A stretch of 64,000 bases of DNA from an uncultured Candidatus Saccharibacteria bacterium (GTDB lineage Bacteria; Patescibacteriota; Minisyncoccia; UBA6257; 2-01-FULL-56-20). A program made the translations under genes and the position numbers. This document shows, in pieces, positions 48,113-63,913 of this stretch. Under the pieces are notes generated by a model. That model had not been told where the DNA came from, made no database searches, and worked only from the letters and a program-made list of their open reading frames with translations. The first letter of the stretch is position 1. Every line of letters starts with the position of its first letter. Location of the stretch: positions 201,210 through 265,209 of the forward strand of contig CAYWDX010000001.1 in NCBI GenBank assembly GCA_964456235.1, read 5' to 3'.

Positions 48113-50299
48113 CTAAACGCCGCTCGGCGTTCCACTTAAAACTGACGGGTGCTTCGAAACCCAATCTTGCACCGCCGCCTCCCATTTTTCGTATTGCGGA
48201 TCGGCCGCTGGGTTTGCCGGGGGCGGCCCAGTCGGATCGTTTTTATCTACGGAGTAGAGGATTGAATGGACCTGATTGTTTGAAAGATAATCGCCCGCGA
48301 GGATCGGCTTCGCGGGATTGGTTGGATCCGGCGGCGTGAAATTTGCGAACGGCTGTGTTTGCAACGCCTGGCGCATAAAGGCGCTCCACATCGGAACCGC
48401 CGCGAGCAAACTCGAGCCGTTTCGGACCATCGGCGTGTTGTCATTGTTGCCCGCCCACACGCCCACCGCGAGCGTCGGCGTGTATCCCATCGCCCACGTG
48501 TCGCGATAATCATTTGACGTACCGGTTTTGAGCGCCACGTCGTGTCCCGGGAACACCGTGAGATTTAATCCGCTCACAAAAAGGCCGCTGCGCGCTTTCA
48601 CATCCGAGAGGACGTCGTTCACGAGGCGCACCGACTGCGGGTCTGCCACGCGCGTTGATTCGTCCGCATATGATTCAAGCGTTCTCCCCGATGCGTCTTG
48701 CACCTGCAGAATCATCGCTTGACTGTGTTTAACGCCATCCGCCGCAAGCGCGGAGTATGCGCCCACCGAATCAATCAGGTGCACGGCGCCGCCACCGAGA
48801 ACGACCGAAAGCCCGTACGAATTTGGATCGGTGAGTGTGGTGAGGCCAAAATGGTATGCGTTCTCAACTGATTTTTGCAGCCCGGCGAGATAGAGCGCTT
48901 TCACCGCGACCACGTTCACCGACTGTGCGAGCGCATTGCGCATGGACATTGGCCCCTGCGGCGGCTCGAAATCTTGTGGATGGAAGCACAGTTTTGTTGA
49001 CGACGTGTTCGGATCGGGGAGTGTCGGGCAGCTTGGGTAGGTGCTGAACTCTGTCGGTACATCAAAGAAAACCGTGTCGGGCGTGTATCCTTCCTGGAAT
49101 GCGGTGAGGTACACGAAGGGTTTTAGGGACGAGCCCGGCTGGCGCAACCCTTGGATCGGCACGTTAAAACTCGGCTCGAATTTGCAATTGACGCTCGGCG
49201 TGCATCCCACGGGCAGCGATGACGTCGCGAAATAATCGCGCGAGCCGACGAGCGCGAGGATCTGGCCGGTCTGCGGATCCTCCGCGACAAGCGCCGCATT
49301 GTAACCTTTATAAAGCTCCTGGTTGCGTTCCGCGCCGGCCAGGACCGCCGCTTCTGCCTGCTGCTGCATATTCCAATCGAGCGTCGTGACCACCTTGAGG
49401 CCGCCCTGGTTCACCGCCGCGTCGCCATATTTCTGCACGAGATAATCTTCCACCGCCATCACGAAGTGCGGAGCTTTGATCCCCCCCGTCGAACGCGCCT
49501 GGAAAATAACTTTATATGAAAGCGCGTCATTCAACTCCATCTTATTAATTTTTCCAAGATCATACATGCGCTGCAGCACGAGCTTTTCCCGTTTCAAGAG
49601 CTCGCTTTGGTGTGCCCCCCACGGCGAATAATATGTGGGGGCTTGGGGGAGTGCGGCGAGCACGGCACTTTGCGCCAAATTGATTTGCGAAACCGGAACG
49701 CCAAAATATGCCTCGCTCGCTTCTTCCACGCCCAAAATATTCGGCCCGTACGAAACCTCGTTCACATAGAGGCCGAGTATCTGGTCTTTTGAGTAGTACT
49801 GGCCAAGACGAACGGCGAGGATCAACTCTTTTAATTTGCGCGTGATCGTTTGGTTTAACGAAAGAAATGCCGTGCGGGCGAGTTGCTGGGTGATGGTTGA
49901 GCCGCCCTGCGCGAGCGAGCCCGAAGTGATGTCGACGTAGAGCGCGCGAAGGATGCCCTTCCAATCAAATGCCGGCTCGTTGTAGAAATTAGAATCTTCG
50001 ATAGCGACCGTCGCGTTCTTCAACGTTTGCGGAACCTGATCGAGCGGGACCACGGTGCGGCGGCCGCTCTGGCTTGTTTCATAAAGAAGCGTGGCGCCGG
50101 TCCGGTCGTAAATTTTTGTTGATTGCGCGATTTGCTGGCTCCCGATTTCGGCGAACGAGGGGAGGGTCGCTGAAAAATAAAGGATCATCAAAAAAAGCAC
50201 GATACAAACGCCCGCCACCGCGATGCCGGCGATTTGGAAGTTACGGATTCGGTTGCGTTGCATGCCTTTCATTATCAAATAAAAACAGCCCTTTCTCAA
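48113..50299 (-). CDS. Class A penicillin-binding protein (transglycosylase/transpeptidase, PBP1A-type)
   Basis: N-terminal TM, GT51 motifs (EDSNFY...), transpeptidase SxxK (SSLKP), SxN and KTG (KTGTS). Confidence 0.85.
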   Translation of the reverse strand: MRKGCFYLIMKGMQRNRIRNFQIAGIAVAGVCIVLFLMILYFSATLPSFAEIGSQQIAQSTKIYDRTGATLLYETSQSGRRTVVPLDQVPQTLKNATVAIEDSNFYNEPAFDWKGILRALYVDITSGSLAQGGSTITQQLARTAFLSLNQTITRKLKELILAVRLGQYYSKDQILGLYVNEVSYGPNILGVEEASEAYFGVPVSQINLAQSAVLAALPQAPTYYSPWGAHQSELLKREKLVLQRMYDLGKINKMELNDALSYKVIFQARSTGGIKAPHFVMAVEDYLVQKYGDAAVNQGGLKVVTTLDWNMQQQAEAAVLAGAERNQELYKGYNAALVAEDPQTGQILALVGSRDYFATSSLPVGCTPSVNCKFEPSFNVPIQGLRQPGSSLKPFVYLTAFQEGYTPDTVFFDVPTEFSTYPSCPTLPDPNTSSTKLCFHPQDFEPPQGPMSMRNALAQSVNVVAVKALYLAGLQKSVENAYHFGLTTLTDPNSYGLSVVLGGGAVHLIDSVGAYSALAADGVKHSQAMILQVQDASGRTLESYADESTRVADPQSVRLVNDVLSDVKARSGLFVSGLNLTVFPGHDVALKTGTSNDYRDTWAMGYTPTLAVGVWAGNNDNTPMVRNGSSLLAAVPMWSAFMRQALQTQPFANFTPPDPTNPAKPILAGDYLSNNQVHSILYSVDKNDPTGPPPANPAADPQYEKWEAAVQDWVSKHPSVLSGTPSGV

Positions 50300-61271: not shown

Positions 61272-61411
61272 GGAGGTGAGTATAGCGAGAATGCGCATAT
61301 TTTACAAGGGCGGCGAGGCCATCATTGACAATATAGTATTTTATAATGTATAATAAACCCGGTTATTCAATATCACCGCTTGCGAAAACCGAGCGAGAAA
61401 ACGAGGATTAT

Positions 61412-62056
61412 ATGGGACTCGCCATAACCGAGAAACAGAAAGCGCGCCTTTTCGACCTAGGCGTTTCTGTCATGGAGTTGACCCGCGACGGAAACCGTGA
61501 CTGCGACGAGGTGATCTGCGTGCTTCAGGCAATCAAGGATCACAAGGATTTCGCGGCGAAACTTCAGGCTCCCACCACGAAGCACCCCCAACCAACCCCG
61601 CCTCCACTAGCGATCGTGATCAACGCCAACCTCGACCCCACGATCCCGTCCGGTCTCTGCCTCACGGGCAAGGGAACCGAGCACCGCAAGATGGGCCAGG
61701 TCACGCTCGAGAAGCGCCCCGACGGGAAGCTCTACGCGAACGGCACGGAGGTCGTCCGCCACCGCGTGCCCGGACAGATGAACGGCACCATCCAGGGCCA
61801 CAAGCTCCGCAAGGAGCTGGAGGGGGTGCAGGTGCTGAACGCCTGCATCATGGACGCCTTGCTCGCCAACCCAGAGCTCATCCCTGACGAGTGGAAGACC
61901 GGATACACCTATTTCTGGGGAACCATCTTCCGCCGCGCGGACGGCAACCTGTGCGTCGGGTACCTGTGCTGGCACGACGACCGGTGGGACTGGGGCTACC
62001 GCTGGCTTGACGGCGTCTGGGGCGGTCAGAACCCGGCCGCGGCGCTCGCAAGTTAG
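61412..62056 (+). CDS. DGR target (variable) protein; C-terminal ~40 aa form the variable region
   Basis: The 3' 123 nt (61928..62050) are repeated at 62427..62549 with substitutions only at template adenines. Trp/Asp-rich C-terminus RADGNLCVGYLCWHDDRWDWGYRWLDGVWGGQNPAAALAS. Start could also be 61346. Confidence 0.7.
   Translation: MGLAITEKQKARLFDLGVSVMELTRDGNRDCDEVICVLQAIKDHKDFAAKLQAPTTKHPQPTPPPLAIVINANLDPTIPSGLCLTGKGTEHRKMGQVTLEKRPDGKLYANGTEVVRHRVPGQMNGTIQGHKLRKELEGVQVLNACIMDALLANPELIPDEWKTGYTYFWGTIFRRADGNLCVGYLCWHDDRWDWGYRWLDGVWGGQNPAAALAS
61928..62050 (+). repeat. DGR variable region (VR)
   Basis: 123-nt match to TR with 17 mismatches, all at TR adenine positions. The conserved GC-rich 3' segment CAGAACCCGGCCGCGGCGCTCGCA is shared with TR and is consistent with an IMH. 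Confidence 0.85.
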
Positions 62057-62123: not shown

Positions 62124-62163
62124 GCCCGTGCATGAACTTCGGTTCTGCACGGGCTTTGTTTTT
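62124..62163 (+). terminator. Rho-independent terminator after the DGR target gene
   Basis: GCCCGTGCA (13-nt loop) TGCACGGGC followed by TTTGTTTTT. Confidence 0.7.
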
Positions 62164-62426
62164 ACAGACAATATGTGTGGTAAAATTTTTATGGAATAAA
62201 GCTCAAAACAAGTCCGCGGCTATGGTTGCGGGCGGCTGAGTTCCAGTATCACTGGATGCGGAATGGCAACGGCTACGGCTTTTGCCAGAGCCATCCTTTA
62301 TCAGCTAAAAACGAAGATACTTGGTGCATTGCGCTGGGGGATTACCCAAAGCCAAGGGGATATTCCGAATGAGATTCAATCCAGAGAGTATTCAATGGAT
62401 GGTGGCGCAGATGGCGCGATGCACGA

Positions 62427-62549
62427 TTCCGCAACGCGGACGGCAACCTGTACGTCAAGTACCTGTACTGGAACGACGACCGGTGGAACTGGAACTACAA
62501 CTGGCTTGACAACGACTGGGACGATCAGAACCCGGCCGCGGCGCTCGCA
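62427..62549 (+). repeat. DGR template region (TR)
   Basis: Invariant, adenine-rich copy with AAC codons at the positions that vary in VR. Not in a Met-initiated ORF. Confidence 0.85.
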
Positions 62550-62569
62550 GCTCTCATCGTTCTCCCGCT

Positions 62570-62956
62570 TTATCTCGAGGCGGGAGTTTCTTTAGCGACC
62601 TGTCGCGCCCATCCACCGATTTGCTTGCCGATTTCGAAAAGTTTTTCTGAAAGTGCGATATACTTCTTCCCGTCGACAGCTTTTATTTCCCAAAGTATTT
62701 CAAGAAAGAATTTTGCTAGGTCGAGATGTCGGGCAGCTTGTTCGAGGTAGGACAATCGGTCGTCTTTATTGGCGAAGACAGCGCGATATATCTCTCCGGC
62801 AGCGTCTATGAGCGATGCGTCTATTTTTATACCAAGCGTATATCGAGCATCTCTTCGCACATGCGGTAAGAATTCATGCCAGATTTTGTATGCACCAATC
62901 AAATGTTGAATAATCGGGAGCGTGATGCGTTGGGGGGGGGGGGTTATTGGTCGCAT
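62570..62956 (-). CDS. avd: Avd-like accessory variability determinant (four-helix-bundle / 23S rRNA IVS-protein family)
   Basis: 128 aa. IIQHLIGAYKIWHEFLPHVRRDARYTLG ... LSEKLFEIGKQIGGWARQ matches the four-helix-bundle family consensus. Opposite strand to the RT and overlapping its 5' end. Confidence 0.65.
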   Translation of the reverse strand: MRPITPPPQRITLPIIQHLIGAYKIWHEFLPHVRRDARYTLGIKIDASLIDAAGEIYRAVFANKDDRLSYLEQAARHLDLAKFFLEILWEIKAVDGKKYIALSEKLFEIGKQIGGWARQVAKETPASR

Positions 62957-63913
62957 TTGGATTTTAAGAAAATTAGTTCGCCGGAAAATTTATTGAAGGC
63001 GTGGCAGGAATTCCTGCTCGGCAAGCGCAAAAAGCATGATGTTCAAGAATTTCAGCTGCGACTCATGGATAATATTCTAGCATTGCACGCGGATCTTGCG
63101 GATGGAACCTATCGGCACGGCGGCTACCGAGCATTTAATGTTTCGGATCCCAAGCCGCGCCACATCCACAAGGCTAGCGTCCGCGACCGTCTTTTACACC
63201 ACGCTATTTATAGAGAGCTGTACCCAGCCTATGATCGTCTCTTTATCTCTGATTCGTTCGCGTGCCGTAATAATAAAGGGATGCATGCGGCGGTCAATCG
63301 TTTTCGCTCATTCGCTTTTAAAGTGGGTCGAAATAATACCCGAACCTGCTGGGTTTTGAAATGCGACATCCGAAAATTTTTTGCGAATATTGAGCACGGG
63401 ATTCTCATGCATATGTTGCGGCAAAAAATCGCTGACCCACAATTATTGGAACTGCTCCACCGTATCATTGAGAGCTTTGAAACGGTGCCGGGCAAAGGGT
63501 TGCCTCTTGGTAACCTCACGTCACAACTTTTTGTGAATATTTATATGAATGAGTTTGACCAATTCATGAAACATAATCTTCGCGTTAAGCACTACGTCCG
63601 TTACGCTGATGATTTTGTGGTCTTATCGCCGAATCGCGAATGGTTGGAAATTATTCTGAAAGAAATGGAAATATTTTTGAAAGAAAGGCTGCGGCTCGAA
63701 TTGCATCCCGATAAAGTCTTCATTAAAACACTCGCCTCCGGTGTGGATTTTCTTGGTTGGGTCCATTTCCCCGACCACCGGGTTCTTCGTAGCGCAACGA
63801 AACGCCGGATGTTAAAAAGAATGTCCCTCCATCGAACGGCCGAAACGGTTGCTTCTTACCGTGGGCTCCTTAAGCATGGCAACACTAAAAAATTAAGCAT
63901 ATACTTGGAGTAA
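62876..63913 (+). CDS. DGR-type reverse transcriptase
   Basis: RT motifs including LPLGNLTSQLFVNIYMNEFD (the SQ signature of DGR RTs, versus SP in group II/retron RTs) and YADD. ~345 aa. Start uncertain because of a G12 tract at 62932..62943. Confidence 0.85.
   Translation: MPDFVCTNQMLNNRERDALGGGGYWSHLDFKKISSPENLLKAWQEFLLGKRKKHDVQEFQLRLMDNILALHADLADGTYRHGGYRAFNVSDPKPRHIHKASVRDRLLHHAIYRELYPAYDRLFISDSFACRNNKGMHAAVNRFRSFAFKVGRNNTRTCWVLKCDIRKFFANIEHGILMHMLRQKIADPQLLELLHRIIESFETVPGKGLPLGNLTSQLFVNIYMNEFDQFMKHNLRVKHYVRYADDFVVLSPNREWLEIILKEMEIFLKERLRLELHPDKVFIKTLASGVDFLGWVHFPDHRVLRSATKRRMLKRMSLHRTAETVASYRGLLKHGNTKKLSIYLE

Follow-up and report, generated by a model that had tools for sequence, protein, structure and literature searches.

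A head-to-head avd gene with a conserved simple-sequence repeat near its start in a B3-type DGR of the Patescibacteria

Introduction

The locus examined in this study raises the question of whether a DGR whose accessory gene, avd, is encoded on the strand opposite to the template repeat (TR) and the reverse transcriptase (RT) is an unusual one, and what such an arrangement would mean for the expression of the element. The cellular control of DGR activity is poorly understood, and a DGR rewrites a gene at some cost. The locus lies in a stretch of 64,000 nucleotides, which is referred to here as the window. An earlier reading of this DNA, made from its letters alone (the sequence-only reading), regarded the architecture as atypical and proposed that avd overlaps the 5' end of RT by about 80 nt, with possible antisense interplay between avd and a TR-RT transcript.

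Two published studies bear directly on this question. Wu et al. 2018 (Nucleic Acids Res, PMC5758913) defined architecture B3 as TR-(avd)-RT, where the parentheses mark the reverse strand, and found this layout in 90% of CPR DGRs. Handa et al. (bioRxiv 10.1101/2023.10.23.563531) described two RNA elements of the Bordetella DGR, a stem-loop that binds Avd and closely follows TR, and a duplex formed by sequences on either side of TR; both elements were predicted in 207 of 278 DGRs, CPR included.

Results and discussion

The minus-strand ORF encodes an Avd-fold protein

The minus-strand ORF at 62570-62956 encodes 128 aa and is a genuine Avd-fold gene, as shown by its HMM matches, its homologs and its fold. 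It matched NCBIfam model NF033474 (DivGenRetAVD) with E=2.5e-14 and 53.5 bits, and Pfam model PF22296 (bAvd) with E=1.5e-8 and 35.5 bits. Both matches are significant yet fall under the curated Avd cut-offs, which are 80 bits for NF033474 and 40 bits for PF22296. Database searches returned 43 homologs of the window Avd with identities of 49-73%, and 42 of the 43 carry a precomputed PF22296 match. An AlphaFold model built on these 43 homologs reached a pLDDT of 88.7 and consists of four helices (residues 14-32, 35-61, 64-90 and 96-123) preceded by a disordered N-terminus. When this model was searched with Foldseek, the top PDB matches belonged exclusively to the Avd/S23-IVS four-helix-bundle family. 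The Bordetella phage Avd (4dwl) was superimposed with TM scores of 0.74/0.87 and an rmsd of 1.8 A, and further matches were 8ub7 (DGR RNP), 2gsc and 2rld. A sequence-profile search of the PDB with the Avd alignment found nothing at E<=1.

Membership in the Avd family is also supported by gene context, as the gene is encoded beside a DGR RT and a TR both in the window and in 123 of 127 relatives. Its direction is toward TR, with the stop codon 20 nt from the TR end, and thus the claim that an Avd homolog on the opposite strand converges on TR was confirmed by HMMs, fold and the 43 homologs. The sequence-only reading had also mentioned a G12 tract, which is present as 12 G at 62932-62943, and had allowed that a different tract length might open an Avd-like frame on the plus strand. 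When the tract was varied from G10 to G14, no plus-strand segment matched an Avd HMM, and the minus-strand ORF gave E=9e-62.

The locus is a standard B3 DGR

The surroundings of avd are unmistakably those of a DGR. TR (62427-62549, plus strand) and the variable repeat (VR; 61928-62050, plus strand) form a repeat pair that matches over 123 nt with 86% identity, and 17 of the 17 mismatches fall at TR adenines. VR lies inside the 3' end of the target gene (61412-62056, plus strand). The ORF of this gene is open from 61346, and ATG 61412, with GAGGA just before it, is its likely start; the first ATG of the ORF falls within a promoter-like site at 61325-61354. Downstream of the gene, a putative terminator-like hairpin can be read at 62124-62164 on the plus strand (GCCCGTGCA...TGCACGGGC then TTTGTTTTT).

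The plus-strand ORF downstream of avd is a reverse transcriptase (62957-63913, with TTG 62957 as its probable start; RVT_1, E=3e-24). It carries the motifs LGNLTSQ, at 63506-63526, and YADD, at ORF residue 243. The motif [I/L/V]GxxxSQ is a hallmark of DGR-type RTs, and in the window an RT with this motif adjoins TR.

The order in the window is TR on the plus strand, avd on the minus strand and RT on the plus strand, with no other accessory gene, which is the B3 layout. Relatives were collected by a GTDB scan using one genome per species, which gave 64 loci with the closest Avd homologs, all from Patescibacteria MAGs, and by a metagenome scan, which added 80 more loci from at least 369 matches. 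RT was found directly upstream of avd on the opposite strand, that is, head-to-head, in 123 of the 127 related loci in which RT was detectable or the upstream DNA was long enough to look. In about 113 of 116 loci TR is a neighbor of the avd stop codon, between -10 and +36 nt from it, and is carried on the RT strand. VR precedes TR on that strand in 113 of 116 loci, and the median spacer between the two repeats is 353 nt. The TR beside the avd stop also had adenine-specific mismatches, with differences almost only at TR adenines, in about 55 of the 64 GTDB loci.

These data place the locus as a standard member of the B3 DGRs of the CPR/Patescibacteria. Compared with the B3 cassettes of Wu et al., TR, avd and RT come in the same order and orientation and nothing architectural differs; in both, the upstream target gene is on the TR strand and carries VR at its 3' end, and the GTDB relatives, like those cassettes, come from Patescibacteria. 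The architecture that the sequence-only reading called atypical departs from the Bordetella prototype only and is the norm in CPR, and the comparison with CPR loci that it called for showed that opposite-strand avd is conserved there (123 of 127). The opposite-strand avd alone adds nothing new, being the published norm for CPR DGRs. Taken as a whole, the locus is probably best explained as an ordinary B3 DGR in which avd and RT diverge from abutting start codons and TR is expressed as a self-contained RNA, and we hold this explanation with good confidence.

A simple-sequence repeat is conserved at the head of avd

The G12/C12 simple-sequence repeat (SSR) at 62932-62943 occupies avd codons 5-9 (T-P-P-P-Q), with 13 nt between it and the probable RT start. 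The corresponding position was surveyed in 150 loci, 137 of which had enough upstream DNA. A simple repeat was present at the head of avd in 118 of the 137, located 30-45 nt before the codon with which the core begins. On the avd strand it was poly-C in 115 of these loci, (AC)n in 2 and (GA)n in 1, and the length of the poly-C was mostly 9-10 nt with a range of 6-12. Since poly-C can be replaced by (AC)n or (GA)n at the same site, the conserved trait is repetitiveness and not sequence. Such runs are rare in the rest of these contigs: 109 G/C runs of at least 8 were found at the head of avd vs 8 elsewhere in 760 kb, and the window holds only one other G/C run of at least 7.

The DNA between this tract and the conserved core of avd behaves as coding sequence. 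Over avd codons 13-21, entropy by codon position was 8.5/5.0/14.9, and the ratio of synonymous to nonsynonymous changes was 1133:1357 in the avd frame, compared with 552:2017 in the best of the other five frames. These patterns indicate that selection between the tract and helix 1 is acting in the avd frame and on a protein. With this coding signature following the tract, and with helix 1 beginning at residue 14, translation would have to come through the tract. In most loci no start codon follows the tract, and in 25 the interval from tract to core lacks one altogether. An ATG in the avd frame was present in 37 of the 118 repeat-bearing loci, which is about the one third expected of a random frame. 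By comparison, intact loci that lack the repeat had an in-frame start in 17 of 17 cases (16 ATG, 1 GTG), 54-84 nt upstream of the core. When the frame was determined for 105 loci, avd was in frame in 28, 52 needed -1 and 25 needed +1. The C12 allele of the window puts avd in frame. Within the window gene, a TTG at codon 19 (62900-62902) could yield a slightly shortened Avd.

Length variation was seen directly in one relative population (Logan, SRR282118xx), where the tract alleles C8, C9 and C11 occur between otherwise identical sequences. Over 4590 nt, the only difference between loci L065 and L068 is C9 vs C11. L065 and L067 differ by C9 vs C8 and by 20 substitutions, all of which are in VR and all at TR adenines. 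Therefore the DGR of that population is active and its avd tract is varying. All of the direct polymorphism was seen in one cluster of five Logan contigs, and a look-up of the exact window Avd protein in the assembly index, aimed at sister contigs, returned no record. Further groups of near-identical loci were considered as a test of tract stability and were found to be uninformative; both tract length and VR are identical within them, and with identical VRs they probably represent the same clone.

A possible switch of Avd and its alternatives

An SSR inside an ORF near its start codon, as found here with C12 in codons 5-9, is the arrangement of a contingency gene. In such a model, slipped-strand changes in length would set the avd ATG in or out of frame, and Avd, and hence mutagenic retrohoming, would be switched stochastically ON and OFF or at least throttled; the window allele would then be an ON allele. 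In Bordetella no cDNA is made without Avd, and therefore phase variation of Avd would switch mutagenic retrohoming as a whole. Slipped-strand phase variation is the most economical interpretation of the tract. The comparative data make it a tentative but reasonable proposal, which we hold to be nearly as probable as not, that the tract is a hypermutable repeat that stochastically gates Avd. If this is true, the slippery tract would be a simple population-level control of the DGR, and a contingency locus would gate a diversity generator.

However, simple phase variation does not predict the bias among frames (28/52/25), and this bias may point to recoding. In that case RNA polymerase slippage on the poly-C, or +1/-1 slippage of tRNA-Pro, would bring some of the ribosomes into the avd frame at any tract length and give a constitutively low level of Avd with no ON and OFF states. 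Such a mechanism would accommodate the fact that about two thirds of the assembled loci are out of frame and yet have diversified VRs. The largest class, 52 of 105 loci when these are counted irrespective of relatedness, would need a +1 ribosomal shift, and poly-C offers CCC-C sites, which are prone to +1 frameshifting according to the literature on EF-P and m1G37. On the other hand, the (AC)n and (GA)n repeats in three loci fit slippage of DNA or RNA polymerase and not of tRNA-Pro, and length alleles were seen directly in DNA. Recoding is regarded as unlikely.

It is also possible, but rather improbable, that the tract is a non-coding regulatory spacer and that avd starts downstream of it, in the window at the TTG of codon 19. 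The tract would then act on the transcription or translation of RT, or of both divergent genes, through promoter spacing, as a 5' UTR element or as a Shine-Dalgarno mimic. The distance of only 13 nt from the tract to the probable RT start would suit this role, as would the GTG or TTG near codon 19-20 in about a third of the out-of-frame loci and a subgroup in which the G-run is 10 nt from the RT ATG. There is also a precedent, as hifA/hifB of H. influenzae is the classic case of a repeat between divergent promoters. What speaks against a non-coding tract is that codons 13-21 are clearly coding and form the start of helix 1, that the 25 loci without a start codon between tract and core would have nowhere to begin, and that all 17 intact repeat-free loci start in frame 54-84 nt upstream. 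In addition, the spacer between the G-run and the RT start varies widely around a median of 19 nt, and for this reason a general role of the G-run as the RT Shine-Dalgarno sequence was rejected.

A full-text literature search found no paper in which homopolymers, poly-G, frameshifting or phase variation are connected with DGRs or with Avd; an earlier description is still conceivable.

The avd and RT genes abut

The RT ORF is open from ATG 62876, and the overlap of about 80 nt between avd and RT claimed in the sequence-only reading exists only if RT is started at this codon, the first ATG of the frame. Upstream of 62957, the RT frame is the codon-aligned antisense of avd. A 345-aa RT query that included this extension aligned with 27 relatives from its residue 1. 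Both the fact that the extension is open and seemingly conserved and the 27 alignments from residue 1 arise because the extension is the codon-aligned antisense of avd. The beginning of RT homology at residue 3 of the TTG version was also considered as evidence for the start and is weak, given these 27 alignments.

Start codons in the relatives do not support the longer ORF. An RT start codon is present between the tract and the RT homology in 95 of 97 unique relatives, so that RT starts on its own side of the tract, and in 60 of the 97 an RT start beyond the tract is impossible, the ORF being closed. In most relatives an ATG lies 15-18 nt upstream or 3 nt downstream of the equivalent of 62957. 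In the window, TTG 62957 is the sole RT start codon in this interval, and therefore avd, which starts at ATG 62956, and RT abut. The junction at 62954-62959 reads CAT followed directly by TTG; locus L024 is comparable, with CAT followed by ATG. Among relatives in which both starts could be assigned, the spacing ranges mostly from a 16-nt gap to a 21-nt overlap. The 80-nt overlap is thus most likely an artefact of choosing the longest RT ORF, and comparison of the relatives indicates that a short head-to-head overlap of avd and RT is the family trait and that an 80-nt overlap is not.

The promoters of RT and avd would each be buried within the first codons of the opposite gene. The sequence-only reading proposed separate promoters, and a separate promoter for avd must indeed exist, as avd is on the opposite strand and convergent on TR. 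A candidate RT promoter, TTGTAT-17-AATAAT, can be read at 62886-62914, and a candidate avd promoter, TAAAAT, at 62966-62961 on the minus strand; both are confounded by coding constraint. A promoter scan of the window called neither the avd nor the RT candidate.

TR is predicted to be transcribed as a self-contained RNA

The sequence-only reading placed TR in the 3' UTR or antisense region of avd and on a common transcript with RT. This view did not survive, as TR appears to have its own promoter, leader and terminator-like hairpin. An extended -10 promoter element for the TR RNA, TGGTAAAAT, is predicted at 62178-62186 on the plus strand from the conservation of TGnTAnnnT. This pattern was present 226-242 nt before TR in 71 of 98 unique relatives, while 19 were expected from shuffles. 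The roughly 230 nt before TR are conserved across related DGRs, and in the window a structured leader RNA with at least 5 helices is predicted at 62193-62426 (plus strand), its 5' end being set by the putative promoter. RNAalifold analysis of 49 diverse leader sequences gave 44 pairs, 36 of them with compensatory changes, and a covariation term of -13.8 kcal/mol; many of the pairs occur as four to six pair types. The last leader helix closes exactly where TR begins. An Rfam search over the TR region, at gathering and E-value thresholds, returned only chance-level matches and no family.

Within the leader, an A-rich segment at 62307-62320 (plus strand) is predicted to pair with the linker that follows TR at 62550-62561. 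Among the relatives, cognate leader/linker duplexes had a mean of -8.0 kcal/mol vs -5.7 kcal/mol for non-cognate ones (Mann-Whitney p=1e-8), and covariation is visible, for example in CAUACGA/UCGUAUG vs AAAUAAAGA/UCUUUAUUU.

The linker is followed at 62562-62593, on the TR strand, by a GC-rich hairpin (CTCCCGC-loop-GCGGGAG; the hairpin proper spans 62562-62586) and TTTCTTT, which is the pattern of an intrinsic (Rho-independent) terminator. In the window the avd stop codon lies at the edge of the hairpin loop, and the T-run and stem are antisense to the avd tail K-E-T-P-A. Of 125 unique loci, 70% had a hairpin with a T-run on the TR strand no farther than 30 nt from the avd stop, compared with 0% for the avd strand and 7.7% for shuffles, and the stem sequences covary between loci. 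It should be noted that this element partly overlaps conserved C-terminal codons of avd, and coding constraint could explain some of its conservation. In 15 loci the hairpin lies wholly outside avd and the T-run is still present, which argues for a terminator and not a mere by-product of coding. The post-TR hairpin is thus terminator-like, and it could also belong to the class of the Avd-binding stem-loop. Together with the predicted leader/linker duplex, it fits the two classes of RNA elements described by Handa et al.

From these patterns we infer that TR would be transcribed, convergently with avd, as a self-contained RNA some 400 nt long (from about 62193 to about 62593), which would end, probably about 45 nt past TR, before running antisense into avd. 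This RNA, RT and Avd would assemble as in Bordetella, with most of the non-template RNA on the 5' side of TR. As TR appears to have its own promoter, a structured leader and a hairpin with T-run on the TR strand, a continuous TR-RT antisense transcript is not expected to be the main product. Antisense interplay of a different kind is possible, either where the 5' ends of the two genes abut or by read-through from avd into TR.

It is accordingly very unlikely that the locus is an atypical DGR in which avd overlaps RT by about 80 nt and is regulated by a TR-RT co-transcript running antisense through it. The RT frame that is open from ATG 62876 through the tract and the 27 relatives that align from residue 1 of the extension would be expected of such an element, and as avd has no terminator on its own strand, some overlap of convergent transcripts is conceivable. 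However, the layout is the published CPR norm and universal among the relatives, the extension is the antisense of avd with selection in the avd frame instead, 60 of 97 relatives cannot start RT beyond the tract, and a hairpin and T-run on the TR strand follow TR.

Comparison with known systems

A close known system outside the CPR is the Bordetella BPP-1 DGR (mtd-avd-TR-brt; 4dwl, 8ub7). The Avd four-helix bundle is shared with the window, as are the [ILV]GxxxSQ motif of RT, the adenine-specific differences between TR and VR, the post-TR stem-loop and the flanking duplex. The two differ in that the window avd is inverted and lies between TR and RT. They also differ in the placement of the long non-template RNA, which in the window is 5' of TR and in Bordetella is the 140-nt Sp spacer 3' of TR. 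In the window the post-TR stem-loop is followed by a T-run, so the RNA, unlike that of Bordetella, probably ends there. To our knowledge, there is no repeat tract in the Bordetella avd.

The tract resembles the SSR contingency loci with poly-G/C known from Neisseria, Campylobacter and Haemophilus, hifA/hifB among them. Like these, the CPR avd has a homopolymer of 6-12 nt after the start, conserved repetitiveness, ON and OFF frames among the assemblies and length alleles within one population. The difference is that the gated gene would be a component of targeted hypermutation and not a surface or restriction gene, and that the hosts are uncultivated CPR bacteria. That the tract and the frame disruptions are only homopolymer sequencing or assembly artefacts is extremely improbable: homopolymers are error-prone, notably in nanopore assemblies, the loci include several MFD bins and four contigs end exactly at the tract, but over 100 loci that stem from independent studies and platforms share the position of the tract, and such runs hardly occur in the rest of their contigs (109 vs 8). 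The tract also recurs with identical lengths across independent assemblies of one clone, and is replaced by dinucleotide repeats at the same site.

A combined model, in which an SSR would switch avd and hence hypermutation while the DGR RNA is permuted relative to Bordetella and has a terminator straddling the avd stop, is put forward with reserve, as something that may be so and that we would not yet call probable. The literature searched did not describe the repeat at the avd head, the abutting start codons or the 230-nt structured leader. Two features suggested by the comparative analysis therefore appear to be undescribed there, namely a conserved and putatively hypermutable tract at the avd head and a permuted, apparently terminator-bounded DGR RNA with a large 5' domain. 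The compact RNA of about 400 nt could serve for in vitro reconstitution of a CPR DGR, and could test Bordetella-type priming with the non-template RNA on the other side of the template.

A more distant likeness is to retron ncRNA (msr-msd), which likewise has structured non-template RNA 5' of the template and is a short transcript beside an RT. The analogy is one of layout only, as the cDNA of a DGR replaces VR, with mutagenesis at A.

Results and Discussion

The avd gene has a simple-sequence repeat within its first codons, which in the window is a G12 tract on the forward strand (C12 on the avd strand) at positions 62932-62943. Of the 137 related loci, 118 carry a simple-sequence repeat at this conserved position, which is poly-C of 6-12 nt except in three loci, where (AC)n or (GA)n takes its place. 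The avd ATG was in frame in only about one third of the loci with a repeat, whereas it was in frame in all 17 of the intact relatives that lack one. When the nearest upstream ATG was compared with the avd frame in all 105 poly-C loci, each counted singly and with kin loci included, 28 were in frame, 25 needed the addition of one nucleotide and 52 needed the removal of one. The counts are thus biased towards a -1 nt correction, the equivalent of a +1 ribosomal shift.

Tract length also varies within one related population, in which the alleles C8, C9 and C11 co-occur. Two loci on Logan metagenome contigs from sister samples, L065 (SRR28211846) and L067 (SRR28211865), differ over 2.7 kb by 20 substitutions, all of them in the VR and at TR adenines, and the sole further difference is one base of the avd tract. 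Judged from these sequences, the pair captures a CPR DGR while it is active. Additionally, four metagenome contigs (L032, L094, L101 and L148) have the C-run of the avd head as their first bases. These starts look like assembly breaks at the tract, and heterogeneity in tract length or low coverage could be the cause. Elsewhere in the 64-kb window, the only further G/C homopolymer of at least 7 nt is a C7 at 49481-49487.

One MAG carries two cassettes, a full one (L017, DAIDJL010000006.1) and one consisting of target, TR and avd (L001, DAIDJL010000003.1), for which no RT was found within 5 kb. The region upstream of the L001 avd is ordinary intergenic sequence, but the poly-C tract was nonetheless retained.

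The TR is flanked by several RNA elements on the forward strand. Directly 5' of it lies a conserved structured leader RNA of about 230 nt (approximately 62193-62426) with strong covariation, which matched no Rfam family and is preceded by an extended -10 promoter predicted from its sequence pattern (62178-62186). A long-range duplex is predicted between an A-rich leader segment (62307-62320) and the linker after the TR (62550-62561). This predicted pairing covaries across loci and is similar to the "cPRT Stop" duplex that upstream and downstream sequences form in the DGR RNA of Bordetella. A terminator-like hairpin with a T-run (62562-62593) spans the avd stop codon, and its antisense encodes K-E-T-P-A, the C-terminal tail of the avd product. 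Among 125 unique loci, such a hairpin and T-run was found on the TR strand in 70% and on the avd strand in 0%.

In the target gene region 61325-61414, a perfect TTGACA-18-TATAAT promoter match overlaps the first ATG of the ORF (61346). The gene probably starts at the ATG at 61412, which has GAGGA before it.
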